Shown here in pieces: positions 5,612 to 40,598 of a stretch of 64,000 nucleotides of DNA. The notes under the pieces were generated by a model. It was not told the DNA's origin and ran no database searches. It worked only from the letters and a program-made list of their open reading frames with translations. Both the position numbers and the translations under genes were made by a program. The stretch's first letter is position 1. Every line of letters begins with the position of its first letter. Source of the DNA: an uncultured cyanobacterium (GTDB lineage: Bacteria; Cyanobacteriota; Cyanobacteriia; PCC-6307; Cyanobiaceae); assembly GCA_963697335.1 (NCBI GenBank), contig CAVONQ010000009.1:20413-84412 (forward strand), written 5' to 3'.

Positions 5612-6586
5612 TCAAGCGGGCTCGATGTGTGCATCGCTGCTTTTTGCGGCGCTTCCCTCTGCTACCTGAGTCGCCAGCAGACTGTCCACCAGGGCTCTGC
5701 GCCCCGGTTGGGCCGTGAGCGCCGCTGCCGTGAGCCGCCAGCTCTGCCAGGCCTGGCGCTCCTGATCCTGCAGGTTCAGCTCCAGCTGGGGCAGCTGGCC
5801 ACTCCAGGCCCCCCCAGTGGTGCCCTGGCCGAGCACGGCCGAGATCTCGGCGCGCAGCACCGCCAGATCGTGGAGTTCGCCCAGCCACTCCTGGCCCTGT
5901 TTGAGGTGCCCCAGCGCCGCCCGCGCTCCCGGGCCGGCCAGGGACTCCAGGTTCTCCAGCCGGTAGCGGGCTTCCTTGATCCCCTTGCGCAGGTCGTGGA
6001 GCTGGCGCACGTTGCCACGGCCCTCTGGAGATTCCAGCCACCAGGCCGGATGCAGCAGCAGGCTGCCGATCCAGGGCCAGTGCCACTCGAGCAGCCAGTC
6101 GGCCAGGGGTTGTTGCCCCAGAGGGGTGAGCTGCGGAGCGGCCAGCCAGCCCTCCAGCGCCCTCACCAGGGAGCGGTAGCCGTTGCCGCGCAGCACGCTC
6201 CGCAGTGGCCCCTGGCTGTGGCGGCGCTGGCGCCGCAGGCGCTTCAGCACCGGCTTCAGGCGGCGGGCCTCGGTCTTGGGCAGGCCGGGCAGCACCTGCT
6301 GGTCCAGCCGCTCGATCAACACATCGAGATCCCTGGCCTGGCCAAGCCGGCGCACGGTTTTGGCCAGGGGCCTGGGGCCCACGGCCTCGGGCAGCTCCAG
6401 GGCCGGGCCGAACTGGCTCAGCACCGTGCTCAGCCGCCGCAGGGTCACCCGCATCTGGTGCAGGGGCTCGGGGTCGCGGTCGAGCAGCACCGACCCCCTG
6501 AGGCTGATCAGGCGCTGGCTGTGCCGCTGCAACAGGCGGTGGGCCTGGCGGCCGGCGCTGAGCGGATGGAGGCCTGGATCGCCCAT
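5612..6586 (-). CDS. CHAD domain protein (polyphosphate-binding)
   Basis: DPEPLHQMRVTLRRL, LGQARDLDV, LHDLRKGIKEARY and LGELHDLAV motifs. Confidence 0.88.
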   Translation of the reverse strand: MGDPGLHPLSAGRQAHRLLQRHSQRLISLRGSVLLDRDPEPLHQMRVTLRRLSTVLSQFGPALELPEAVGPRPLAKTVRRLGQARDLDVLIERLDQQVLPGLPKTEARRLKPVLKRLRRQRRHSQGPLRSVLRGNGYRSLVRALEGWLAAPQLTPLGQQPLADWLLEWHWPWIGSLLLHPAWWLESPEGRGNVRQLHDLRKGIKEARYRLENLESLAGPGARAALGHLKQGQEWLGELHDLAVLRAEISAVLGQGTTGGAWSGQLPQLELNLQDQERQAWQSWRLTAAALTAQPGRRALVDSLLATQVAEGSAAKSSDAHIEPA

Positions 6587-6673
6587 GGAAGGGAGGGCCG
6601 GGGGGCTGGCCCCATGCTGCACCCGCGCAGCCCACAACACAGCGAGACTGGCCGCCAGGAGCTCCCCAACCCG

Positions 6674-7768
6674 ATGGCTTCCCCCGGCTCCGCCCTGACC
6701 CTGGTGATCAACGCCGGCAGCTCCAGCCTCAAGGCCTCGCTGCTGGCGCCCGATGGTTCCCGCCCCTGGCAGGAGCAACACGGCTGGGACCCGGCGGAGC
6801 CCGGCGGCATGGGCGGCCTGCTGGAGCGGTGGCTGCTGCCGGCGGTGCTGCCCTGGCTGCCGCAGCTGGAGCGGATCGCCCACCGGGTGGTCCATGGCGG
6901 CGAGCGGTTCTGCCGGCCCACCCGGCTCACGCCATCGGTGATCACCGGGCTGGAGGCCATCGAATCCCTGGCGCCCCTGCACAACGGCCCGGCCCTGCAG
7001 GCGATCCGCTGGTGGGCCGCCTGGCTGGAGCGCGAGCACCAGACCCTGGCCCAGTGGGCCTGCTTTGACACGGGCTTTCACGCCTCCCTGCCGGAGGCGG
7101 CGCGCACCTATGCGATCCCCGCCGCCTGGCGGCGGCAGGGGCTGCGGCGCTACGGCTTCCATGGCCTCAACCACCAGCACGTGGCCGAGGTGGTGCAGGC
7201 CCGCTGCCCCGATGCCCGCCGCCTGATCAGTGCTCACCTCGGCGCTGGCTGCTCCCTGTGCGCCGTGCAGCTGGAGCCGGGGGCGGCACCGCGCAGCGTG
7301 GCCACCACCATGGGCTACACCCCCCTGGAGGGCCTGGTGATGGCCAGCCGCAGCGGCAGCGTGGACCCCGGCCTGCTGCTGCACCAGATGCGCCAGGGGC
7401 TCAGCGCCGACCAGATCGACCAGGCCCTCAACCGCCAGAGCGGGCTGCTGGGGCTCTCCGAACTCAGTGGCGACATGCGGCAGCTGCGCCAGGCCGCGGC
7501 TGCCGGCCATGGCGGTGCCCTCCTGGCCCTGGCCGTGTTCCGTCAGCGGCTGCTGGAGGGGATCGGCGCCATGGCCGCCAACCTGGGCGGCGTGGAGGTG
7601 ATCGCCCTCACCGGTGGCATCGGCGAACACGACGACGCCCTGCGCCTGGAGTTGGAGCAGGCCCTTGTCTGGCTGCCGCCCTTCACCCTGCTGCGGGTGC
7701 CGGCGGATGAGGAGGGGCTGATCGCCCGCGCCTGCCGCAGGGCGGTCAGCGCTTCACGCCAGGGATGA
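6674..7768 (+). CDS. ackA: Acetate kinase
   Basis: LVINAGSSSLK, HRVVHGG, APLHN, FDTGFH, MGYTPLEGL and TGGIGE motifs. Confidence 0.9.
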   Translation: MASPGSALTLVINAGSSSLKASLLAPDGSRPWQEQHGWDPAEPGGMGGLLERWLLPAVLPWLPQLERIAHRVVHGGERFCRPTRLTPSVITGLEAIESLAPLHNGPALQAIRWWAAWLEREHQTLAQWACFDTGFHASLPEAARTYAIPAAWRRQGLRRYGFHGLNHQHVAEVVQARCPDARRLISAHLGAGCSLCAVQLEPGAAPRSVATTMGYTPLEGLVMASRSGSVDPGLLLHQMRQGLSADQIDQALNRQSGLLGLSELSGDMRQLRQAAAAGHGGALLALAVFRQRLLEGIGAMAANLGGVEVIALTGGIGEHDDALRLELEQALVWLPPFTLLRVPADEEGLIARACRRAVSASRQG

Positions 7769-8981
7769 AGCGCCGCTCGTGCTGGGCACCGGTGAGCATG
7801 CGGTTCCAGTAGAGGGAGGGAAGGACCTTGCGCTTGATGAACCACATGCTCCAGCGCTCCTTGGTGGGATCCAGGGGGAAGGAGGGCACCGGCTGCTGCT
7901 CATAGTTGAACTCGGCCATGATCACCTTGCCGTAGCCGGTGATCAGCGGGCAGCAGCTGTAGCCGTCGTAGGCGGCCTCCAGGGGCTGGCCGTCGAGGAA
8001 GGCCAGCAGGTTCGCCACCAGCACCGGGGCCTGGCCGCGCACGGCGGCGGCGGTCTTGGAGTTGGGAATGCCGCTCACATCCCCCAGGGAGAACACGTTC
8101 GCGAAGCGCAGGTGCTGCAGGCTGAACTTGTCCACCTCCACGAAACCACTGGCAGCAGCCAGGGGGCTGCTGGCCACCACCTCCGGAGCCGCCATCGGCG
8201 GCGTCACGTGCAGCAGGCCGTAGGGGATCACGGCCTCATGGCTCTTGTCACCGTCGTTCACCTGGAACACGGCTTCGCGACTCTCCGGGCGCACGGCGGT
8301 GAGCACGTGGTTGTAGCGGGCGTCGATGCCGTGGCGCTTCACCACCTCCCGTAGCGGCGCGGCGTAGGTGGGCACGCCGAAGATCCCAGGCGTGGCGGTG
8401 GCATAGATCACCTGGGCCTGCAGACGCTTCTTCTTGAACACGTCATCGGCCAGATAGGCGATCTTCTGGGGAGCGCCCGGGCACTTGATCGGCATCGGCG
8501 CACAGGTGAACACCGCATTGCCCTTGGTGCCTTCACTGCCTCCTTTGAAGGCCTGAATCGCCTCCCAGGTGTAGGCGGTGTACTCCTTTGAATAGTTGCT
8601 GCACACGCCGCCCTGGCCGAGGGCCTCCGTCAGCCCCTCGATCTTCTCCCAGCAGAGCCGCAGGCCGGCGGCCACGATCAGCACGTCGTAGTGGATCGCC
8701 TCGCCCTCGGTGCTGGTCACCACCGCTCGCTCGGGATCAAAAGCGGCGGCTCCGGCGCGGATCCAGTGCACGCCTGAGGGAATCACATCGCCTTCGGCGC
8801 GGCGGGTTTCCTCCAGGCTGAACACGCCGCCCCCCACCAGGGTCCAGCCCGGCTGGTAGTAGTGCTCGCTGGAGGGCTCAAGGATGGCCACATCGAGGCC
8901 GGGGCGGGCCCGCTTCAGCTGGGCCGCGGCGGTGATTCCGGCGGCACCGCCGCCGACGATCAGAATCTGGTGATGGGCCAT
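7746..8981 (-). CDS. sqr: Sulfide:quinone oxidoreductase, type II-like (copy 1)
   Basis: GGGAAG FAD motif; HYYQPGWTLVGGG; KCPGAPQK and YDGYSCCPL catalytic Cys pair; KTAAAV; AEF. Confidence 0.87.
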   Translation of the reverse strand: MAHHQILIVGGGAAGITAAAQLKRARPGLDVAILEPSSEHYYQPGWTLVGGGVFSLEETRRAEGDVIPSGVHWIRAGAAAFDPERAVVTSTEGEAIHYDVLIVAAGLRLCWEKIEGLTEALGQGGVCSNYSKEYTAYTWEAIQAFKGGSEGTKGNAVFTCAPMPIKCPGAPQKIAYLADDVFKKKRLQAQVIYATATPGIFGVPTYAAPLREVVKRHGIDARYNHVLTAVRPESREAVFQVNDGDKSHEAVIPYGLLHVTPPMAAPEVVASSPLAAASGFVEVDKFSLQHLRFANVFSLGDVSGIPNSKTAAAVRGQAPVLVANLLAFLDGQPLEAAYDGYSCCPLITGYGKVIMAEFNYEQQPVPSFPLDPTKERWSMWFIKRKVLPSLYWNRMLTGAQHERRFIPGVKR

Positions 8982-9122
8982 GGGGCAGCGCAGGGCGCTG
9001 AGCCGCCCCGTGTAGGTCTGTTCCCATTGAGTCATGCCGAGGGTGCCCCAACGGAAGCGCTCCCCTGACTGATGGGAAACTTCGACGCCCCTGCCAGCAT
9101 CCCCTGACCGACTCAGACCAGC

Positions 9123-9350
9123 TCAGGCGGCCAGCTCCTCCACATCCCGCTTGAGCAGGGCATAGAGGTAGTCGGGAGCTTTGTAGCGGTTGGGCAGGCT
9201 TTTCTGCAGCAGGGTCAAGCGCTCCCAGCACACCGTGCGCTGAATCGTGTCGAGGGATTTGCCGTTTTTGATCAATAGCCTGAGGGCCTTGCAATAGGTG
9301 GGATAGCCCGCCTCCAGTTCGCCGATCGTGAGCCTGGCCTCAACGCCCAT
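9123..9350 (-). CDS. DUF3136-like small cyanobacterial protein (copy 1)
   Basis: LTIGELEAGYPTYCKALRLL...RTVCW...RYKAPDYL pattern; paralog at 13703. Confidence 0.8.
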   Translation of the reverse strand: MGVEARLTIGELEAGYPTYCKALRLLIKNGKSLDTIQRTVCWERLTLLQKSLPNRYKAPDYLYALLKRDVEELAA

Positions 9351-9530
9351 GCCAACCCCTGTGCGAAGGAAGTCCTTCATTTACAAAGCAAATCTTAAGA
9401 AGGTTTGGTGACCAAATCCAGCCCCAGGGCCAGACCCACAGATTTCTTTGGAATCGAGCGATGGCCATGGGCCTCGCCCCGCTGGCAGGGTGGGACCGGA
9501 CCTCTCGGGGTCCTCCCCGCCGCGACCGCG

Positions 9531-21767: not shown

Positions 21768-22706
<939 letters not shown>

Positions 22707-22713
22707 TCAGGAT

Positions 22714-24311
22714 TCAGGCGGAGAAGTGGGCCTTGGCGGCGTAGAGGGCCTCACCGTCAATCAGGGCCAGCCCTTGCTCGCGGGCATAGGCCTCGGTGTT
22801 GCGCCGCACCTTGCCGCGCACGAAGAAGGGGATCTTGGCCAGTTCGGCCTCGCCGGTCGGGTCCCAGCTGGGGGCGCTGGGGCCGACCGGAGTTCGCTCT
22901 TCGCTGCCGGGGTCAGGGGCGGCAGCGGGGGCTGGAGCCGTTTCGGGGGGGGCCTGGCCGCCCAGATGGCTGCGGTGGCCCTCCACGAATTCGAAGTCGT
23001 GGCGGAACATGCCGATCAGGTGCTCCTCCAGGCCCATCATCAGCGGGTGCACCCAGCTGTCGAAGAGCTCGTTGGCGCCCTCCCAGCCCATCTGGGGGGC
23101 ATGGCGGGCCGGCACGTCCTGCACGTGCAGGGGTGAGCTGATCACGGCACAGGGGATGCCGAGGCGCTTGGCGCTGTGGCGCTCCATCTGGGTGCCGAGC
23201 ACCAGCTCCGGCATGGCCTCGGCCATGGCCCGCTCCACCTCCAGGTAGTCATCGCTGATCAGGGCCTCGAGGCCCAGCTCCCGGGCGGCGGCCCGCACAT
23301 CCCGGGCCAGCTCGCGGCTGTAGCTGCCCAGGCCCACCACCTCAAATCCCAGCTCCCGGCTGGCCACCCGGGCAGCGGCAATCGCATGGGTGGCATCGCC
23401 GAAGATGAACACCCGCTTGCCGGTGAGGTAGGTGGAGTCGACCGAGCGGGAGTACCAGGGCAGTTGGGAGGAGCTCTCCGGGGCCATGGGCTGCTCCTCG
23501 AGGCCGAGCACCTGGCGCAGCTCGCTCAGGAAGTCGCGGGTGGCGCCGATGCCGATCGGCACCGTGCGCACCACCGGCTGGCCGAAGCGCCGCTCCAGCC
23601 AGCTGCACACCGGCCCGGCCACCTCCGGATAGAGGCAGACATTGGCATCGGCCGCCGGGATGCGCACCAGATCGGCGGGGTGGGCTCCCAGGGGCGCCAC
23701 CACCGCCACATCGATGCCTTCGGCGCCCAGCAGGCGGCTGAGCTCGCGTACATCGTCGCGGCAGCGGAAGCCCAGCAGGCTGGGGCCGAGCAGGTTGACC
23801 CGGGGCCGTCGGCCCTCGGCTCGCCAGCGCTGGGCCGAGGGTGGCGGCGTGCCCGGGGCCGGCATCTGGGCCTTGAGCAGGTGCCGCACCAGTTGGTAGA
23901 AGGTCTCCGCCGCTCCCCAGTTCTCCTTCTTGGAGTAGGCCGGCAGCTCCAGGCTCACCACCGGCCTGCCGCCCAGGTCCATGCCGGCCGCCAGGGAGCC
24001 CGGCTGGTCCTGGATCAGCTCGGCGGTGCAGCTCTCACCCACCAGCAGGGCCTCGGGCTGGAAGCGGTCCACCGCCTCCTGGATCGAGCGCTTCACCAGC
24101 TCGGCGGTGTCACCACCCAGGTCGCGGGCCTGGAAGGTGGTGTAGGTGACGGGCGGGCGCCGCTGACGCCGCTCGATCATCGTGAACAGCAGGTCGGCAT
24201 AGGTGTCGCCCTGGGGCGCATGCAGCACCAGGTGCACCCCCTCCATGGAGGCGGCGATGCGCAGGGCCCCCACGTGGGGAGGGCCTTCGTAGGTCCAGAG
24301 GGTGAGTTCCA

Positions 24312-24312
<1 letters not shown>
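22714..24312 (-). CDS. chlB: Dark-operative protochlorophyllide reductase subunit B
   Basis: [23 protein letters not shown]-terminal PCP_red domain [15 protein letters not shown]. Confidence 0.96.
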
Positions 24313-25706
<1,394 letters not shown>

Positions 25707-30136: not shown

Positions 30137-31066
30137 TCAGGGCAGCGCGCTCCACAGCACGGTGGCGGCGCCAAGCACCATCACGGCGGCGGCGAGCAGT
30201 CGGCGACGCCCCTCGGCCTCGCCCAGGGCCACCACGCCGATGCCGCTGCCGAAGAGGGTGCTGAGCCGTTTGATGGCGATCACATGCACCACGGCGGTGT
30301 TCCGGATCGCCTCCATCTGCCACACCGAGCCCACAGCCCCGGCCAGGGCCGCCACCAGCAGGAACGGCAGCACCCCTCCCCAGCCGATCCGAGCCTTGCC
30401 CCTGGCCTTGGCACGGGCTGGGCCGCTGGCCAGGCCTCCCGGCAGCGACAGCCCCAGCAGGCTGCCGCCGATCACCAGCTGCAGGGAAACCACCCACAGC
30501 ACGCTGCCGCCTGCCTGCACCCCCAGCTTGTCCATGGTGGCGGCCATACCCCAGATCACGGCCACCAGCAGCATCCAGCGGCACCCGGGGCTGGCCCAGA
30601 GCTGGCCCAGCCCCGCCATGCCCCCCGACGCCAGCCCTCCCCTGCGGCTGCGGCCCAGCAGCAGGGCCCCCAGCACGAGAAGTCCCACGCCGGCCGCGGC
30701 TAGCGGGCTGGGCCGCTCCCCCAGCACCCACCAGCCCGCCAGCAGCAGCACCAGGGGGGAGAGGTTGATCAGCGGCAGCACCAGGCTGAGGTCCTCCAGA
30801 GCGATGGCGCGGCCATAGCCCCAGAAGGCCAGGGCATTGAGGCTGCCGCCCACGGCCAGGGCCGCCAGGAACGCCCAGCCATCCAGGGGCTGGGGTCCGT
30901 TCAGCAGCAGGGGCAGGCCCAGCAGCAGCGCGGCCAGGGCACTGCTCAGACCGATCACCCGCAGGGTGCTCCAGCCGGACTGACGCAGCACCCTGCGCAG
31001 GGCCAGATCGCGCAGGGTTTCCAGTACCGCTGTGCCGAGGGCCAGCAGCGCCCAGGGGAGCACCAC
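30137..31066 (-). CDS. EamA/DMT family transporter
   Basis: About 10 TM helices; SLVLPLINLSP and VLGER motifs. Confidence 0.8.
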   Translation of the reverse strand: MVLPWALLALGTAVLETLRDLALRRVLRQSGWSTLRVIGLSSALAALLLGLPLLLNGPQPLDGWAFLAALAVGGSLNALAFWGYGRAIALEDLSLVLPLINLSPLVLLLAGWWVLGERPSPLAAAGVGLLVLGALLLGRSRRGGLASGGMAGLGQLWASPGCRWMLLVAVIWGMAATMDKLGVQAGGSVLWVVSLQLVIGGSLLGLSLPGGLASGPARAKARGKARIGWGGVLPFLLVAALAGAVGSVWQMEAIRNTAVVHVIAIKRLSTLFGSGIGVVALGEAEGRRRLLAAAVMVLGAATVLWSALP

Positions 31067-31187
31067 GGGCTAGGCGGCCCCCAGGCCAGCCTGGCCATGG
31101 CATGGGGTCCTCATTCCGCGAAGAATCGCCACCTTCCCAAGCCTCTCCCTGTTCTGCTCTCCACACTGAAGGAAAGCCTCCCGGTCG

Positions 31188-31625
31188 ATGCGGGCTTCGA
31201 TCAACCATGCCCTGCGGCTGATCACCCTCTGGATCGCCTGGCTGCTGGCGATGCTCTTCCATGTGGACCTGGGCCTGATGCCCCTGTTCCACGGCCAGTC
31301 GCCGGAGATCCACAGCCAAGTGCAGGAGGGGGCATTGCCCTTGCTGTTCGGGGCGATGCTCGGCTACTTCCTGCTGCCGCTGATCGCCATCGTGCTGATC
31401 GCCTACGCCGCCACCACGGTCGGTCCGGCCACACGCTGGCGACCCTGGCGGCGGATCCACTTCTGGTTCAGCGTGGTCTATTCGGTCACCAACGTTCCCC
31501 ATCTCCTGGCCGACATTCTGGTGCCCGATGCCCGCCTCGATCAGATCGTGCTGATGGTGGCCCTCACGGTGTTCGGGCTGTTGATCAACCTGGAGGCCTG
31601 GCACTGGTGGCGGCAGAACCCCTGA
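31188..31625 (+). CDS. Hypothetical membrane protein (about 4 TM)
   Basis: Hydrophobic ORF with FHVDLGLMPLFHG motif and host-like codon usage. Confidence 0.7.
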   Translation: MRASINHALRLITLWIAWLLAMLFHVDLGLMPLFHGQSPEIHSQVQEGALPLLFGAMLGYFLLPLIAIVLIAYAATTVGPATRWRPWRRIHFWFSVVYSVTNVPHLLADILVPDARLDQIVLMVALTVFGLLINLEAWHWWRQNP

Positions 31626-31670
31626 CGGGGTGGGGCGGCAGGGGGGCCGGGAACAGGCGCTTGTTGTCTT

Positions 31671-31690
31671 TTATGCGCTTACAGCGATAA
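31671..31690 (+). promoter_or_regulatory. Imperfect palindromic operator in the psbA promoter
   Basis: TTATGCGCTTACAGCGATAA between TTGTCT and GATAAC; similar box at 39576-39595. Confidence 0.5.
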
Positions 31691-31780
31691 CAGGCTATCG
31701 TTTCCAGCAGGAGCTCGCCGGCGCGGCCCTTCGCGGCGCTGCCGGCGCTGGGCTCCTCGTCAACGCATCGCCTGGATCCC

Positions 31781-32860
31781 ATGACGACAACCTCCCTGTC
31801 TCCCTCCCGCATCCCCCTCTGGGAAGCGTTCAAGAACTGGGTCACCAGCACCGACAACCGCCTCTACGTGGGTTGGTTCGGCGTGCTGATGATCCCCACC
31901 CTGCTGGTGGCCACCTGCTGCTTTGTGATCGCCTTCATCGGTTCTCCCCCCGTCGACATCGACGGCGTCCGGGAGCCCGTCTCAGGCGGCCTGCTCTACG
32001 GCAACAACATCATCACGGCGGCGGTGGTGCCGAGTTCCAACGCCATCGGTCTGCACCTCTATCCGATCTGGGCCGCCAAAAGCCTCGATGAGTGGCTCTA
32101 CAACGGTGGGCCCTATCAACTGATCATCTTCCACTTCCTGATCGGCATCTTCTGCTGGATGGGCCGTGAGTGGGAACTCAGCTATCGCCTCGGCATGCGC
32201 CCCTGGATCGCCGTGGCCTATTCCGCTCCCGTGGCCGCTGCCACCGCCGTGCTGCTGGTGTACTCCATCGGCCAGGGTTCCTTCTCCGACGGCATGCCCC
32301 TGGGCATCTCCGGCACCTTCAACTTCATGCTGGTGCTCCAGGCCGAGCACAACGTGCTCATGCACCCCTTCCACATGCTCGGCGTGGCCGGTGTGTTCGG
32401 CGGTGCCCTGTTCTCGGCCATGCACGGCTCCCTCGTCACCAGCTCCCTGGTGCGCGAAACCACGGAAACCGAGTCCCAGAACCGGGGTTACAAGTTTGGC
32501 CAGGAGGAGGAGACCTACAACATCGTGGCGGCCCACGGTTACTTCGGCCGACTGATCTTTCAGTACGCCAGCTTCAACAACAGCCGCAGCCTGCACTTCT
32601 TCCTGGCCGCCTGGCCCGTGGTGGGCATCTGGTTTGCGGCCCTGGCAGTGGCCAGCTTCTCCTTCAACCTCAACGGCCTCAACTTCAACCACTCCGTGCT
32701 CGATTCCCAGGGCCGGGTGGTGGACACCTGGGCTGACGTGCTCAACCGCGCCGGCCTTGGCATCGAGGCGATGCACGAGCGCAACGTGCACAACTTCCCC
32801 CTCGATCTGGCGGCGGTTGATCGGGCCTCAGTGGCGCTCACGGCGCCAGCTCTCGGCTGA
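31781..32860 (+). CDS. psbA: Photosystem II D1 protein, low-oxygen D1' (group 3) form
   Basis: Full D1 with Y161, D170, E189, H190, H332, E333, H337, D342, A344 intact; D1' substitutions G80A, F158L, T286A, plus P162S, F186L, A336V and E130. Confidence 0.93.
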
Positions 32861-32916
32861 TCCTGTCGCGCCCAGGTGGCGCCTTCCCGTTCATCGTTCC
32901 CCTGCCTGGCTCTGCC

Positions 32917-33561
32917 ATGGATCTTCTCTTCCCCACCCTGCGGCGCATGCTGCCTCTGATGGCTCTGGCGGCCGCCTTCGCCCTGCTGGCCAGCCTGCTG
33001 CTGAGCCTCTGCCCGGCGCCCGCCCTCGCCCTGGAGGCGCCCGCCAACCCGGCCGGTCTCCCCCGGGCCGTCGAGGCGATGGAGCAACTGGATGAGCTGC
33101 GCACGCAGCTGGCCTCCAGCCTCGAGGGCAGCAGCGAGGAGCCCAGCATGGACACGATGCGGGAGGTCTGCCGGCCCGTGGGCCTGCGGGCCATGGCCAT
33201 CGGCAAGGAGAACGGCTGGACCGTGCGCCAGGTGGCCAGCAAGTACCGCAACCCCGACCATGCCCCCGCCGGCAGCCAGGAAACCGAGGTGATCGATCTG
33301 CTGGCGAGGCACCCCGAGATCACCGGCCTGTGGGAGCCGGCCGCGGCCGGCCAGGCCGCCGGTGTGAACTATTACCGCCGCATTGATGTGCAGCCCAGCT
33401 GCCTGGCCTGTCATGGCACCAAGGACAGCCGCCCCGGATTTGTGAAAAACAACTACCCCGCCGACAGGGCCTTCAACTTCAAGCCCGGCGATCTGCGCGG
33501 CATGTATGCCGTGTTCATTCCTGAGGTGCAGGAGGTGCTCAGGGCCTCTGAAGGAGGTTGA
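32917..33561 (+). CDS. Tll0287-like (DUF3365) exported c-type heme protein
   Basis: Signal peptide; REVCRPVG candidate axial Cys; KYRNPDHAP; SCLACHG CxxCH; FKPGDLRGMYAVFIP. Confidence 0.82.
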   Translation: MDLLFPTLRRMLPLMALAAAFALLASLLLSLCPAPALALEAPANPAGLPRAVEAMEQLDELRTQLASSLEGSSEEPSMDTMREVCRPVGLRAMAIGKENGWTVRQVASKYRNPDHAPAGSQETEVIDLLARHPEITGLWEPAAAGQAAGVNYYRRIDVQPSCLACHGTKDSRPGFVKNNYPADRAFNFKPGDLRGMYAVFIPEVQEVLRASEGG

Positions 33562-33563
33562 GC

Positions 33564-34835
33564 ATGCATTGCCAGGTGCTGATCGCCGGGGGCGGAACCG
33601 GGGGGATCACCGTGGCCAGCTGGTTGCGACGGCTGGCGCCGGAGCTGGAGGTCACGGTGGTGGAGCCCTCCTCCGTTCACGACTACCAGTCGGGCTGGGT
33701 GCTGGTGGCCGGCGGTTTCATCTCTGCGGCTGAAACCGAGCGCAGTGAGGCCTCGGTGATGCCCGAGGGGGTGCGCTGGATCTCCAGCAAGGTGGTGGCC
33801 TTCGATCCCGATCACCATGCCATCGAGCTGACCGATGGCCAGCGCCTCACCTACGGGGTGCTGGTGGTGGCGCTGGGCATCGACCTGCTCTGGAGCGCCG
33901 TGGACGGCTTGCCGGCAGCGCTGGGTGGCCATGGGGTCTGCAGCATCTACAGCCGCCGTTTTGCGGTGTACACCCGCGACTGCCTGCGCCGCTTCCAGGG
34001 CGGTACGGCCCTGTTCACCGAGCCCGCCACGGCGATCAAATGCGGTGGGGCACCCCAGAAGATCATGCACATTGCCGACCAGCAGTTCAAGCGGCGCAGT
34101 GGCGTGGGCGTGAATTCCAGGCTGATCTTCTGCACCGCCAAGAGCAGCCTGTTCCCCGTGCCGGCCTTCAACACCGCCATGGAGGCGATCGCGGCAGCCC
34201 ATGGCAGCGAGGTGCGCTACCGCCACAACCTGGTGGCCGTCAACGGCCCGGAGCGCCGGGCCGTGTTCCGGGTCCAGGAGCAGGAGGGCGGCGAGGGCCA
34301 CGAGCTGGAGCTCGGGTTCGATCTTCTGCATGTGGTGCCGCCGATGGCCGCGCCCCGGGTGGTGGCGGATAGCCCCCTCGCCATCAATGCCACGGAGGGC
34401 TGGGTGGAGGTGGATCCCCACAGCGGCCAGCATCCGCGCTACCCCGATGTGTTCGCCGTCGGTGATGTGGGCTCGTATCCCACCGCCAAGACAGGGGCGG
34501 GGGTGCGCATGCAAGCCCCGGTGGTGGCCGCCAATGTGCAGGCGGTGCTGCAGGGGGGCAGCGTGCAGCCGGGCTACGACGGCTACAGCGCCTGCCCGCT
34601 CATCACCACAGACCACAGCGTGATGATGGTGGAGTTCGACTACACCAACAAGCCCGTGAGCAGCTTCCTGGTGAATCCGGTGAAGGAGCGCTGGTTCGCC
34701 TGGTTGCTGGAGCGTTGGGGTTTTCCCTGGATCTACTGGAACCGCATGCTCAAGGCGCAGCCCCACGAGGGCGCCTACCTGAAGCCGTTCACGGGGCTGG
34801 CCCGGCGGCTGGGCCTGATGCGCTGGCAGAGCTGA
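33564..34835 (+). CDS. sqr: Sulfide:quinone oxidoreductase, type II-like (copy 2)
   Basis: GGGTGG; HDYQSGWVLV; KCGGAPQK and YDGYSACPL; KTGAGVR; AAGGAGG RBS inside the upstream gene end. Confidence 0.87.
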   Translation: MHCQVLIAGGGTGGITVASWLRRLAPELEVTVVEPSSVHDYQSGWVLVAGGFISAAETERSEASVMPEGVRWISSKVVAFDPDHHAIELTDGQRLTYGVLVVALGIDLLWSAVDGLPAALGGHGVCSIYSRRFAVYTRDCLRRFQGGTALFTEPATAIKCGGAPQKIMHIADQQFKRRSGVGVNSRLIFCTAKSSLFPVPAFNTAMEAIAAAHGSEVRYRHNLVAVNGPERRAVFRVQEQEGGEGHELELGFDLLHVVPPMAAPRVVADSPLAINATEGWVEVDPHSGQHPRYPDVFAVGDVGSYPTAKTGAGVRMQAPVVAANVQAVLQGGSVQPGYDGYSACPLITTDHSVMMVEFDYTNKPVSSFLVNPVKERWFAWLLERWGFPWIYWNRMLKAQPHEGAYLKPFTGLARRLGLMRWQS

Positions 34836-34865
34836 ATCCAGCCAATCAATCGATCGGCTCGGGAA

Positions 34866-35639
34866 TCAGAGGATCTGCTCGAGGAAACGGCGGCTGCGTT
34901 CGTGGCTCGGGTTCGAGAAGAACCGCTGCGGCGGCGCCTCCTCCACCACCTCGCCCCCGTCCATCAGCACCACGCGGTGGGCCACCTGCTGGGCAAAGCG
35001 CACCTCGTGGGTCACCACCACCATGGTCATGCCCTCGGCGGCCAGGCCCTGCATCACCTCCAGCACCTCGCGCACCATCTCGGGGTCAAGGGCGCTGGTG
35101 GGCTCATCGAAGAGCATCAGCTGGGGGTCCATGCACAGCGAGCGGGCGATGGCCACCCGCTGCTGCTGGCCGCCGGAGAGCTGGCCCGGGTATTTGTCCG
35201 CCTGCTCGGCGATCCCCACCCGCTCCAGCAGCTGGAGGGCCCGTCGCTTCGCCTCGGTGCGGCTGCGGCGGCGCACCAGCACCGGCGCCAGGGTGAGGTT
35301 CTCCAGCACCGTGAGGTGGGGGAAGAGGTTGAACTGCTGAAACACCATGCCCACCTCGCGGCGGATGGCGTCGATGTCGCGCAGGTCGGCGGAGAGGGGC
35401 CGGCCATCGATGTGAATGCTGCCCTGCTGAAAGTCCTCCAGGGCGTTGAAGGTGCGGATGAAGGTGCTCTTGCCGGAGCCCGAGGGCCCCATGATCACCA
35501 CCACCTCGCCGCGCTTCACCGTGAGGCTGGCACCCCTGAGGGCCTGAAAGCCGTTGGGGTACCACTTGTGCACGGCCTCGGCCCGCAGGATCGGGGCCTG
35601 GCTTTGGTTCTGGGGGGTGGTGGGGGCGCTGGAGTCCAT
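34866..35639 (-). CDS. Polar amino acid ABC transporter ATP-binding protein (AapP-like)
   Basis: GPSGSGKS, LSGGQQQR and FDEPTSALD motifs. Confidence 0.92.
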   Translation of the reverse strand: MDSSAPTTPQNQSQAPILRAEAVHKWYPNGFQALRGASLTVKRGEVVVIMGPSGSGKSTFIRTFNALEDFQQGSIHIDGRPLSADLRDIDAIRREVGMVFQQFNLFPHLTVLENLTLAPVLVRRRSRTEAKRRALQLLERVGIAEQADKYPGQLSGGQQQRVAIARSLCMDPQLMLFDEPTSALDPEMVREVLEVMQGLAAEGMTMVVVTHEVRFAQQVAHRVVLMDGGEVVEEAPPQRFFSNPSHERSRRFLEQIL

Positions 35640-39168: not shown

Positions 39169-39507
39169 TCAGACGGCCTTGAGCTGCTGGAGCTGGGCCT
39201 CAAGCCGTTGCTTGAGGCGTTTCTGCACCAGGTCGCAGAGGTCGTCCACCAGATCGCTGTCGGCGTGCCAGATCGTGCGCACGCCATCGCGTTCACAGCG
39301 CACCAGGGTGGCGCGCTGCAATTGTCCAAGCTGCCGACTGATGTGGGACTGGGAGAAGCCGGTGGCCTCGATCAGGGAGGCCACATCCATCGGCCCCTGC
39401 TTGAGCTGACAGAGGAGCTGCAGCCGCGCCGGTTCGCTCAGGATCCGGAAGAACTGGCTGAACTCTTCAAGCAACTGGGGGGAGGGCGGCTGGCCCGGAC
39501 AAGACAT
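39169..39507 (-). CDS. ArsR/SmtB repressor, BigR/SqrR-like
   Basis: FRILSEPARLQLLCQL, HTH SQSHISRQL and C-terminal DLCDL; Cys pair in helix 2 and helix 5. Confidence 0.8.
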   Translation of the reverse strand: MSCPGQPPSPQLLEEFSQFFRILSEPARLQLLCQLKQGPMDVASLIEATGFSQSHISRQLGQLQRATLVRCERDGVRTIWHADSDLVDDLCDLVQKRLKQRLEAQLQQLKAV

Positions 39508-39615: not shown

Positions 39616-39774
39616 GTGGCTACCACTAGTGCCGATTCGCTCGCCTCGGGGGCCGTCACCGTGATCGACGTGCGCGAGTCCGCGGGGCTTGTGCACCACA
39701 ACGGTCAACACAGTGGCCCCGCCCTGGAACAGCTGCTGCTGGCGCTGATGCCCTGGAACCGGGTGAGCCTGTGA
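39616..39774 (+). pseudogene. Internally deleted rhodanese-DUF2892 (YgaP-like) gene
   Basis: N-terminal LASGAVTVIDVRE joined about 16 codons later to C-terminal LLALMPWNRV; no catalytic Cys loop; stop overlaps tauE start. Confidence 0.65.
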
Positions 39775-40598
39775 CGGTTGCCGCCGTTGAGATGGTCACG
39801 GTTTCCACGCTGCTGCTGCTGGCCGGCGGAGCCCTGATCGGTCTGCTGCTGGCCGTGCTGGGGGCAGGCGGCTCAATCCTGCTGCTGCCCCTGCTGGTGA
39901 GCGGCGCGGCTCTGCCCACCCGCGAGGCGGTGCCGCTGTCGCTGCTGGTGGTGGCCCTGCTCGCCATGGCCAACGTGGGGCCCTACCTGCGCCGGGGCCA
40001 GCTGGCTCCCCGCCCAGCCCTGCTGCTGGGCGTGCCAGCCCTGGCGGGCAGCTGGATCGGCGGCAGCCTGGTGAAGGCGGGCCTGATTCCAGAAGTGCTG
40101 CAGCTGGGGCTGTTCAGCGTTGCCGCCGTGGCCGCCTCCTGGCTGCTGCTGCGCCGGGGTGCCCAGGCTGCCGGCCGCCCCCCCGGCGCCAGACCGGTTG
40201 CTGTGAGGGCCCTGGCCGCCCAGGGTCTGGGGGTGGGCCTGCTCACCGGCATTGCCGGGGTGGGCGGTGGCTTTGCGATCGTGCCGGCTCTGGTGCTGCT
40301 GGCGGGGCTGCCGATGGCGGTGGCCAGTGGCACCAGCTTGGTGCTGATCGCCGCCAATGCCGCGGTGGCCCTGGTGGCTCTGGGCCACTGGCCCCAGGCG
40401 ACGCTGCCGCTGTTGGTGCCGTTGCTGCTGGGGGGAGCTGCCGGAGGGCTGCTGGGACAGCGGCTGGCGCCCCACCTGCCGGAGCGGCGGCTGCGCCAGG
40501 GCTTTGCGCTGCTGTTGATCGGCTCGGCCCTGCTCACCGGGGGCGAGGCCTGGCAGCGGCAGCAGGTGCCGCCGACAGCGGCTGAGCGGGCTCAGTAG
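39771..40598 (+). CDS. Sulfite exporter TauE/SafE (TSUP) family
   Basis: LGAGGSILLLPLL; GVGGGFAIVPALV; ASGTSL; about 8 TM helices. Confidence 0.87.
   Translation: MTVAAVEMVTVSTLLLLAGGALIGLLLAVLGAGGSILLLPLLVSGAALPTREAVPLSLLVVALLAMANVGPYLRRGQLAPRPALLLGVPALAGSWIGGSLVKAGLIPEVLQLGLFSVAAVAASWLLLRRGAQAAGRPPGARPVAVRALAAQGLGVGLLTGIAGVGGGFAIVPALVLLAGLPMAVASGTSLVLIAANAAVALVALGHWPQATLPLLVPLLLGGAAGGLLGQRLAPHLPERRLRQGFALLLIGSALLTGGEAWQRQQVPPTAAERAQ

Follow-up and report, generated by a model that had tools for sequence, protein, structure and literature searches.

A psbA(D1')–Tll0287–sqr gene string in a Cyanobiaceae genome: a probable compact form of the cyanobacterial low-oxygen/sulfide island

The window analyzed here, a 64,000-nucleotide stretch of contig CAVONQ010000009.1 (assembly GCA_963697335.1) from an uncultured cyanobacterium of the family Cyanobiaceae, carries three consecutive genes on its forward strand: a psbA gene for a D1' form of the photosystem II (PSII) protein D1 (31781–32860, 359 aa), a gene for an ortholog of the Thermosynechococcus elongatus heme protein Tll0287 (32917–33561, 214 aa), and a gene, sqr, for a type II sulfide:quinone oxidoreductase (SQR; 33564–34835, 423 aa from its ATG). 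In our view the string is likely to represent a compact form, probably co-transcribed, of a low-oxygen/sulfide island found widely among cyanobacteria, combining D1 exchange with a quinone-reducing SQR and a heme protein that serves as sensor or accessory. Among picocyanobacterial relatives the conserved core is psbA(D1') followed by Tll0287, and SQR is a frequent but variable third member. The subject bears on the survival of oxygenic phototrophs in sediments, at chemoclines, and in sulfidic waters of Proterozoic type, and the finding is a useful lead on sulfide coping in small cyanobacteria, not a radically new one.

The D1' Protein and Its Phylogenetic Position

The three gene identities had been proposed in a first-pass annotation made from the letters of the window, and all of them are borne out by matches to TIGR01151, PF11845, and human SQOR, respectively. 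The psbA product scores 716.8 bits against TIGR01151 (cut-off 596). The genome holds four psbA genes, and the D1' copy is 82, 82, and 79% identical to the other three; aligned with these, it shows A80, L158, and A286 at positions occupied by G, F, and T in the others, has E at position 130, and keeps the Mn4CaO5 ligands D170, E189, H332, E333, H337, D342, and A344, exactly the substitutions (G80A, F158L, and T286A) and complete ligand set first read from the translation. Typing of D1' by its ranking against PDB chains proved non-discriminating (PsbA2 688 bits, PsbA3 691 bits; for a standard psbA copy PsbA3 is ahead by 30 bits), and a tree was used instead.

This tree, built by FastTree (LG) from 108 distinct D1 sequences of the loci collected here, unites the picocyanobacterial D1' orthologs in a monophyletic group (support 1.0), and A80/E130/L158/A286 is found in 47 of 47 of them. 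Their clade is sister to three signature-bearing D1s of other cyanobacteria (support 0.95) and lies outside the standard G/F/T clade, which comprises 44 sequences including the other copies of this genome (support 0.94); ten further A/L/A-type D1s form another clade (support 0.97). Moreover, nine further differences between picocyanobacterial D1' and standard D1 are fixed: C144A, F186L, I192V, G289A, T292S, M293F, A294S, N325G, and V330A. Group 3 D1 has been defined by possession of all ligands, the three substitutions, and a branching before group 4 (PMC4408414), and since ligands, substitutions, and branching of the window D1 all fit this published definition, its assignment as a D1' of group 3 type, which had been anticipated for a D1 phylogeny, is supported. 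One D1' ortholog among the relatives (L035, genome G081) has Y for H at ligand 332 (DEYEHDA), which could reflect either an error of sequencing or an inactive variant.

The Tll0287 Ortholog

The second product reaches 92.6 bits with PF11845 (DUF3365, “sCache_heme”; cut-off 24.1) and matches the solved structure of Tll0287 (PDB 5b82) over residues 22–211 with 193.6 bits (E 2.9e-56). It is single-copy in the genome, and on its sequence it is a clear ortholog of Tll0287. Both motifs that had been singled out in this protein, a CxxCH and a candidate Cys ligand, are confirmed: CLACH (C162-L-A-C165-H166) and C85 of “VCRPVG” align with 5b82 and are invariant in 20 of 20 aligned homologs. C85 is a candidate for the second axial heme ligand. 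On inspection of the translation, the N-terminus is signal-peptide-like, with RR, a hydrophobic stretch, and ALA-LE.

In T. elongatus, Tll0287 is reported to bind its heme through His and Cys, to combine a sensor-like PAS/Cache fold with a potential of about -255 mV, and to accumulate in cells making only PsbA2, and it has been proposed as the cytochrome subunit of an H2S-oxidizing system (bioRxiv 10.1101/2023.02.13.528314); the fold of the family is described as PAS/Cache-like and not as that of a cytochrome c (bioRxiv 10.1101/2023.02.13.528314; 10.64898/2026.02.01.703092). The role of the ortholog in the window is most likely that of a redox or sulfide sensor, or of an accessory of PSII containing D1' (D1'-PSII).

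The Type II SQR and Its Relatives

The flavoprotein encoded by the third gene, here called SQRa, has human SQOR as its best solved relative (296.7 bits), far above the flavin subunits of flavocytochrome c sulfide dehydrogenase (70–83) and the type I enzyme of Aquifex (51.6 bits). A Pyr_redox_2 domain and an N-terminal GGGTGG mark the fold that binds flavin adenine dinucleotide (FAD), and the redox cysteines C160 and C344 (ATG numbering) align with SQOR and are conserved without exception in the alignment (19 of 19 relatives), in agreement with the claim that both catalytic Cys are present. It is thus identified as a type II SQR, for which sulfide-dependent quinone reduction is predicted. Two other assignments were rejected, namely type III SQR (selenoprotein subtype, NF049943), with 189.8 bits against a cut-off of 525, and flavocytochrome c sulfide dehydrogenase (FccAB), the flavoprotein being SQOR-like and its heme partner PAS/Cache-like by published description.

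The window encodes a second type II SQR outside the string (SQRb; 7746–9035, reverse strand), which is 46–48% identical to SQRa and scores 378.9 bits with SQOR. Homologs with 46–50% identity to SQRa occur in many genomes of the family that have neither D1' nor Tll0287, and for this reason SQRb looks like a “housekeeping” SQR. In a tree of SQRs, the picocyanobacterial type II enzymes fall into three clades: SQRa, with the gene of the string; SQRb, with the second copy of the window together with cyd-linked ones; and SQRc, linked with PetC, ArsR, and persulfide dioxygenase (PDO). All three are found as the SQR of islands in picocyanobacteria. As to side observations, SQRb has as neighbors a DUF3136 gene (9123–9380) and an open reading frame (ORF) with an acetate-kinase domain (5627–7768). 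Otherwise full-length type II SQR matches in seven relatives (G064, G199, G121, G092, G181, G120, and G155) contain a single in-frame TGA and may possibly encode selenocysteine proteins, NCBIfam holding a “selenoprotein subtype” model of SQR; an in-frame TAG is found in the SQR matches of G138 and G024.

Junctions and Upstream Elements

The ORF listing gives a TTG start for sqr at 33558, just ahead of the TGA of the heme gene (33559–33561). The Shine–Dalgarno-like GGAGG read within the 3' end of the heme gene (33553–33557, forward strand) lies 6 nt ahead of an ATG at 33564, and because of this spacing, and because human SQOR aligns from residue 4 of the TTG-initiated protein onward, the ATG is the likeliest start. 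With it, the intergenic gaps are 56 nt (32861–32916) between psbA and the heme gene and 2 nt between the heme gene and sqr, as originally stated, and the latter two genes may well be translationally coupled. A terminator scan found no terminator-like site in either gap. The fold of the 81 nt around the psbA stop (32845–32925) is no better than that of shuffled sequences (z 0.15). For comparison, a strong hairpin (-35.4 kcal/mol, z -2.27) is formed by the 100 nt that follow one of the genome's standard psbA copies. Same strand, short gaps, and terminator-free junctions together make up the anatomy of an operon, and the earlier description of the locus as operon-like is thereby upheld.

Upstream of psbA, a promoter-like element, GCTATCGTT (31694–31702, forward strand), with a -10-like TAnCGT lies 87 nt before the ATG. 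The corresponding motif GNTANYGTD is present upstream of 47 of 52 D1' orthologs, at a median of 93 nt before the ATG, against 1.85 in shuffles. Taken together, the terminator-free junctions and this conserved upstream element lead us to favor co-transcription of the three genes from a promoter before psbA. In addition, 33 of the 52 (against 0.26 in shuffles; e.g., L073 and L040) have an inverted-repeat-like box, TGAGNA-N4-5-NNCNCA, near to TGAGCA-N4-TGCTCA, at a median of 144 nt before the D1' ATG, which is a candidate site for a dimeric regulator. No operator common to the psbA upstream region, the intergenic region between the ArsR-type regulator and TauE genes of the window (described below), and the region upstream of SQRb emerged from inverted-repeat scans.

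Conservation among Picocyanobacteria

Conservation of the gene order was assessed in two sets of loci. The first derives from 201 genomes of the family of the window, in which D1' orthologs were counted at a threshold of at least 85% identity: D1' occurs in 33 of them, full-length Tll0287 in 29, and both in 25, so that Tll0287 without D1' is seen in 4, and SQR is present in 29 of the 33 D1'-bearing genomes. Around the 29 Tll0287 loci of this sample the available flank was only 1.5 kb; within it, 20 loci have psbA ahead of Tll0287 in the same orientation, and five have an SQR at most 300 nt downstream (the window, L011, L013, L016, and L034). The second set consists of 64 named picocyanobacterial loci (Cyanobium, Vulcanococcus, freshwater “Synechococcus,” Aphanothece, and Regnicoccus) with up to 8 kb of flank. 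Of these, 51 offer at least 2.5 kb of upstream sequence, and 41 of the 51 have psbA ahead of Tll0287 in the same orientation. A same-strand SQR lies no more than 6 kb downstream in 21 of 45 and is the immediate neighbor in 3 of 64. The expectation that the order psbA–DUF3365–sqr would be conserved therefore stood for its first step (41 of 51) and for the second only in part, SQR being variable (21 of 45 within 6 kb; adjacent in 5 of 29 and 3 of 64).

Since the complete order recurs in relatives, it is not a chance juxtaposition. Aphanothece stagnina (L069) has the same psbA–Tll0287–SQRa order and, about 750 nt further, a homolog (90% identity) of the ATPase of an ATP-binding cassette transporter that flanks the string in the window. 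Two other relatives (G022 and G112) have psbA(D1') directly followed by SQR, with no Tll0287, and in G110 a remnant of Tll0287 stands beside D1' (G110:C3:92943-93080). Furthermore, L065 has two copies of Tll0287 and a split psbA, and short D1 remnants adjoin Tll0287 in L025 and L080; these four loci show signs of decay or duplication in the island.

Many relatives have a fuller island, whose companion genes were identified by Pfam. One form reads psbA–DUF4079–Tll0287–alternative Rieske PetC–SQR–ArsR (opposite strand)–metallo-beta-lactamase/rhodanese (PDO type)–TauE, and another contains the gene of a TPMT-type methyltransferase (opposite strand) followed by SQR and rhodanese; in some islands the cytochrome bd oxidase genes cydAB and a peroxiredoxin gene are present as well. 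Island genes seen in L073, L053, L041, L047, and others also include a 184-aa rhodanese, a 1-Cys peroxiredoxin, and a fused metallo-beta-lactamase–rhodanese. The islands of the relatives look like a coherent low-oxygen/sulfide toolkit of which the genome of the window keeps only a part: its PDO–rhodanese and TPMT genes are on another contig, C6.

Several observations weigh against reading the string as a co-transcribed form of this island. SQR is not constant, 24 of the 45 named loci lacking it within 6 kb, and the genome of the window has no cydAB and no alternative Rieske protein (one PetC only). The D1 tree is not anchored by a published representative of group 3. A consensus sigma-70 scan found no promoter in 30900–35300, and the inverted-repeat-like box is absent from the window and from its closest relative, L011. 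The ArsR-type gene is not adjacent to the string here, and its product resembles BigR and SqrR only at the family level. SQRa begins directly at the FAD-binding fold, with no signal peptide, and Tll0287 is predicted to be exported; the two may therefore work on opposite faces of the membrane. As for RNA, the only runs found are two sediment metatranscriptomes (shares 0.08 and 0.06), and none of their contigs bridges a junction. The contigs over 31100–35000 are mostly psbA and 90–95% alike, i.e., from other organisms, with a few short ones of low depth on the heme gene and SQR, and the one at 33537–33687 extends 25 letters upstream of the junction and so does not count as bridging under a 31-letter rule. 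These contigs carry no information on co-transcription, expression, or habitat.

Tll0287 and SQR beyond Picocyanobacteria

Among 16 named non-picocyanobacterial loci, none has psbA or a type II SQR beside Tll0287, and six have, immediately ahead of it in the same orientation, a type I SQR, assigned by its match to the Aquifex enzyme (350 bits). Of 301 genomes sampled across the class, 71 carry Tll0287 and 94 a type I SQR, and 62 of the 71 Tll0287-bearing genomes also have type I SQR. Counted from coordinates, the two genes are at most 2 kb apart on the same strand in 39 of 69 non-picocyanobacterial genomes, usually with sqr first and Tll0287 about 90–500 nt behind, at times with a small ArsR gene between them; in one genus with genomes of 2.3–2.8 Mb, the pair is found in 9 of 11 Tll0287-bearing members. 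The proximity of Tll0287 to sqr, which the first-pass annotation stated for Thermosynechococcus, thus holds as a general rule in cyanobacteria, and this orphan heme protein acquires a consistent genomic partner across cyanobacteria, namely SQR. At several psbA loci of group 3 type in other cyanobacteria, an alternative PetC, ArsR, type I SQR, or PDO is encoded within a few kb, and one of these loci (L161) also has Tll0287. From the recurrent joining of one heme protein with two types of SQR, both in the company of a low-oxygen D1, we argue for a shared low-oxygen/sulfide function.

The same distribution can be read in favor of two independent units. psbA genes are usually monocistronic, and the locus might comprise a low-oxygen psbA(D1') of this kind followed by a sulfide-responsive Tll0287–sqr dicistron, which would be controlled by ArsR from a promoter in the 3' end of psbA or in the spacer. 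Such a division would agree with the sqr–(arsR)–Tll0287 pair of other cyanobacteria (39 of 69 genomes), near which psbA is found in 0 of the 13 named loci with enough flank, with the ArsR genes that adjoin island SQRs in relatives, and with T. elongatus, where psbA2 and the Tll0287 gene are widely separated but nevertheless connected in their expression (bioRxiv 10.1101/2023.02.13.528314). However, the spacer in the window is only 56 nt long and holds neither a terminator-like structure nor a promoter-like match, and in picocyanobacteria psbA to Tll0287 is the most constant adjacency (41 of 51), above that of Tll0287 to sqr. We therefore consider two separate units unlikely, and a single unit headed by psbA remains our preferred reading.

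A second alternative concerns the use of the heme protein. Tll0287 could be the physical redox partner of SQR, in the manner of a flavocytochrome, so that carriers in the lumen or periplasm, or the donor side of PSII, would receive the electrons from sulfide in place of plastoquinone or in addition to it. The pairing of the two genes is indeed very tight: with the 2-nt gap and probable coupling in the window may be compared gaps of 4–13 nt between SQRa and Tll0287 in G106, G132, G077, and G058 (3.3 kb in one genome), and in each of the six sampled family genomes that encode a member of the SQRa clade (at least 66% identity), Tll0287 is found on the contig of that gene. Moreover, Tll0287 pairs with type I as well as type II SQRs across the class, and the idea of an H2S-oxidizing cytochrome subunit is already in print for it (bioRxiv 10.1101/2023.02.13.528314). 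On the other hand, SQRa retains the whole SQOR-like architecture, its C-terminal region aligning with the human enzyme to residue 411, and it has no signal peptide, where Tll0287 is predicted to be exported. The PAS/Cache fold reported for Tll0287 is sensor-like, and its potential of about -255 mV would make it a poor acceptor of sulfide electrons compared with quinone (both after bioRxiv 10.1101/2023.02.13.528314). Two relatives also have psbA–sqr and no Tll0287, and four have Tll0287 and no D1'. On balance, a direct redox partnership appears to us very improbable. A prediction of the complex of SQRa with mature Tll0287 (residues 41–214) scored 0.00 in two runs with controls not folded, and hence provides no evidence either way.

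A bolder version of the single-unit reading, which we offer as doubtful, would make Tll0287 itself the link between sulfide oxidation and PSII. Its Cys ligand would respond to sulfide or persulfide, or to lumenal redox state, and its placement on one mRNA with D1' and a dedicated SQR clade would amount to a hard-wired module, possibly with direct contact to D1'-PSII and/or SQR. If this were true, an obligatory partnership would lie behind the fact that type I SQR and three clades of type II SQR have come to stand beside Tll0287 repeatedly and independently.

A Working Model

Under the preferred reading of a single low-oxygen/sulfide unit, transcription would start about 80–90 nt upstream of psbA and read through the terminator-free 56-nt spacer into the Tll0287 ortholog and then the coupled sqr. 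D1' genes are known to be induced under microaerobic conditions (PMC4408414, PMC4500134), and with falling oxygen and the appearance of sulfide, D1' would be placed in PSII, presumably still oxidizing water, with its fixed changes located around the donor side and helix E. The Tll0287-family c-heme protein, Cache/PAS-like, would be exported to the lumen or periplasm as a redox/sulfide sensor or as an accessory of D1'-PSII. Sulfide inhibits the PSII donor side (PMC8002359, PMC4500134), and SQR passes electrons from sulfide into the plastoquinone pool (PMC12466478). The type II SQR would accordingly convert H2S to sulfane sulfur and deliver the electrons to plastoquinone, and this oxidation would both remove an inhibitor of the water-oxidizing site and add electron flow to photosystem I. 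Later sulfur handling may be encoded elsewhere, by the persulfide dioxygenase–rhodanese on contig C6 and by TauE in the window, and the ArsR-type regulator 4.3 kb away is a candidate sulfide sensor. Precedent for parts of this scheme comes from Synechococcus PCC 7002, in which SQR sustains growth with DCMU (3-(3,4-dichlorophenyl)-1,1-dimethylurea) and sulfide, and polysulfide raises a psbA 8-fold and petC 5.6-fold (PMC12466478). That the unit acts as a switch between oxygenic and anoxygenic photosynthesis, as the first-pass annotation also envisaged, is speculation.

Relation to Known Systems

The closest published precedent is the survey of Grim and Dick (2016), in which psbA of group 2 or 3 lies near sqr in 15 of 44 cyanobacterial genomes and linked regulation of a modified PSII and sulfide oxidation is suggested (PMC5061849). 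The locus in the window resembles theirs in having a low-oxygen-type psbA within a few genes of sqr, often with an ArsR-type regulator nearby (PMC5061849). The survey, however, deals with mat-forming and other large cyanobacteria (Geitlerinema, Cyanothece, Leptolyngbya, and sinkhole bins), its text not naming “Cyanobium,” and its proximity extends up to 19 genes, in contrast to the string of three genes found here (PMC5061849). A further difference is the dedicated type II SQR subclade, together with Tll0287 as the constant middle gene.

With T. elongatus, the window shares an orthologous heme protein associated with the microaerobic D1 isoform PsbA2, for which a role as sensor or in H2S oxidation has been proposed. 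There, the link between PsbA2 and Tll0287 is reported as one of biochemistry and expression between non-adjacent genes (bioRxiv 10.1101/2023.02.13.528314), and here the genes are 56 nt apart; moreover, the window D1' keeps P173 in the alignment, whereas PsbA2 of T. elongatus has M173 (bioRxiv 10.1101/2023.02.13.528314). The sqr–(arsR)–Tll0287 pairs of other cyanobacteria show the same heme family and an SQR, with ArsR, alternative Rieske, rhodanese/PDO, and DUF4079 as companions, but their SQR is of type I and usually upstream of Tll0287, whereas here it is of type II and downstream, and psbA heads the string.

The D1' gene also recalls psbA1 of Synechocystis PCC 6803, which shares the three signature residues, is not expressed in air, and is turned on under microoxic conditions through activation by the MarR-type regulator ChlR at low oxygen; the same review suggests a role of D1' in H2S-rich anaerobic habitats (PMC4500134). 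The upstream elements described above are candidate sites that carry no assignment to ChlR or to another regulator. In Synechococcus sp. PCC 7002, SQR likewise supports light-dependent growth on sulfide with PSII blocked, with psbA and petC up, but this strain belongs to a different lineage that is not Cyanobium-type, and no operon of SQR with psbA or Tll0287 is described in the sections of that work consulted here (PMC12466478). Finally, a sulfide response by “alternative D1 plus SQR” has been drawn as a model, and type II SQRs have been noted in Synechococcus RS9917 and WH5701 (PMC8002359).

In the literature searched we found no description of type II SQR clades specific to the island, of the class-wide sqr–Tll0287 pairing, or of a psbA–Tll0287(–sqr) unit in picocyanobacteria, and Motomura 2017 may already mention the sqr neighbor. 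The claim that the unit was undescribed in picocyanobacteria consequently stands, within the literature searched, for the triad as such, but its components were partly anticipated: the proximity of psbA and sqr (PMC5061849), the model of D1 plus SQR (PMC8002359), and the idea connecting Tll0287 with H2S are in print. What the present analysis adds is that in Cyanobium-type picocyanobacteria Tll0287 is joined into a unit headed by a low-oxygen D1 gene, with distinct SQR clades dedicated to the island. It turns the biochemical link known from T. elongatus into a testable operon model in picocyanobacteria that are small, culturable, and abundant in fresh and brackish water. Candidate markers of sulfide tolerance for metagenomes of stratified waters are Tll0287, SQRs of the SQRa and SQRc clades, and D1', recognizable by the nine additional fixed substitutions.

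Regulators and Other Genes of the Window

The ArsR/SmtB-family regulator (HTH_5; 39169–39504, reverse strand) lies 4.3 kb downstream of sqr. Orthologs in relatives (74–89% identity) are found directly between the island SQR and the persulfide dioxygenase–rhodanese gene, and the regulator is a candidate sulfide- or persulfide-responsive repressor. Against PDB chains its product scores 39 bits with NmtR/SmtB, 32.7 with BigR, and 24.5 with SqrR-type proteins, which is the generic level of the family, and because the similarity goes no further, its assignment as a persulfide sensor of BigR/SqrR type was dropped. The protein has two Cys, in “LLCQL” and “DDLCDL.” Divergent from it is a gene for a sulfite-exporter-like membrane protein of the TauE/SafE family (39771–40598, forward strand; PF01925, 134.3 bits), whose orthologs come after the PDO–rhodanese gene in the islands of relatives.

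Immediately upstream of psbA, a conserved hypothetical membrane protein of 145 aa is encoded by orf145 (31188–31625, forward strand), whose membership in the unit is uncertain. It matches no Pfam or NCBIfam family, and its atlas matches are hypothetical cyanobacterial clusters, one of which carries DUF6326 on 14%. Homologs occur near the island in 7 of the 64 named loci at varying positions, directly after Tll0287 in L052 and L014. Further upstream, 6 kb before the string, lie genes for the oxygen-sensitive dark protochlorophyllide reductase (21768–25652, reverse strand), namely a NifH-like ChlL followed by two subunits resembling nitrogenase component 1, one of them with PCP_red; their presence may be a coincidence or may mark a low-oxygen neighborhood.

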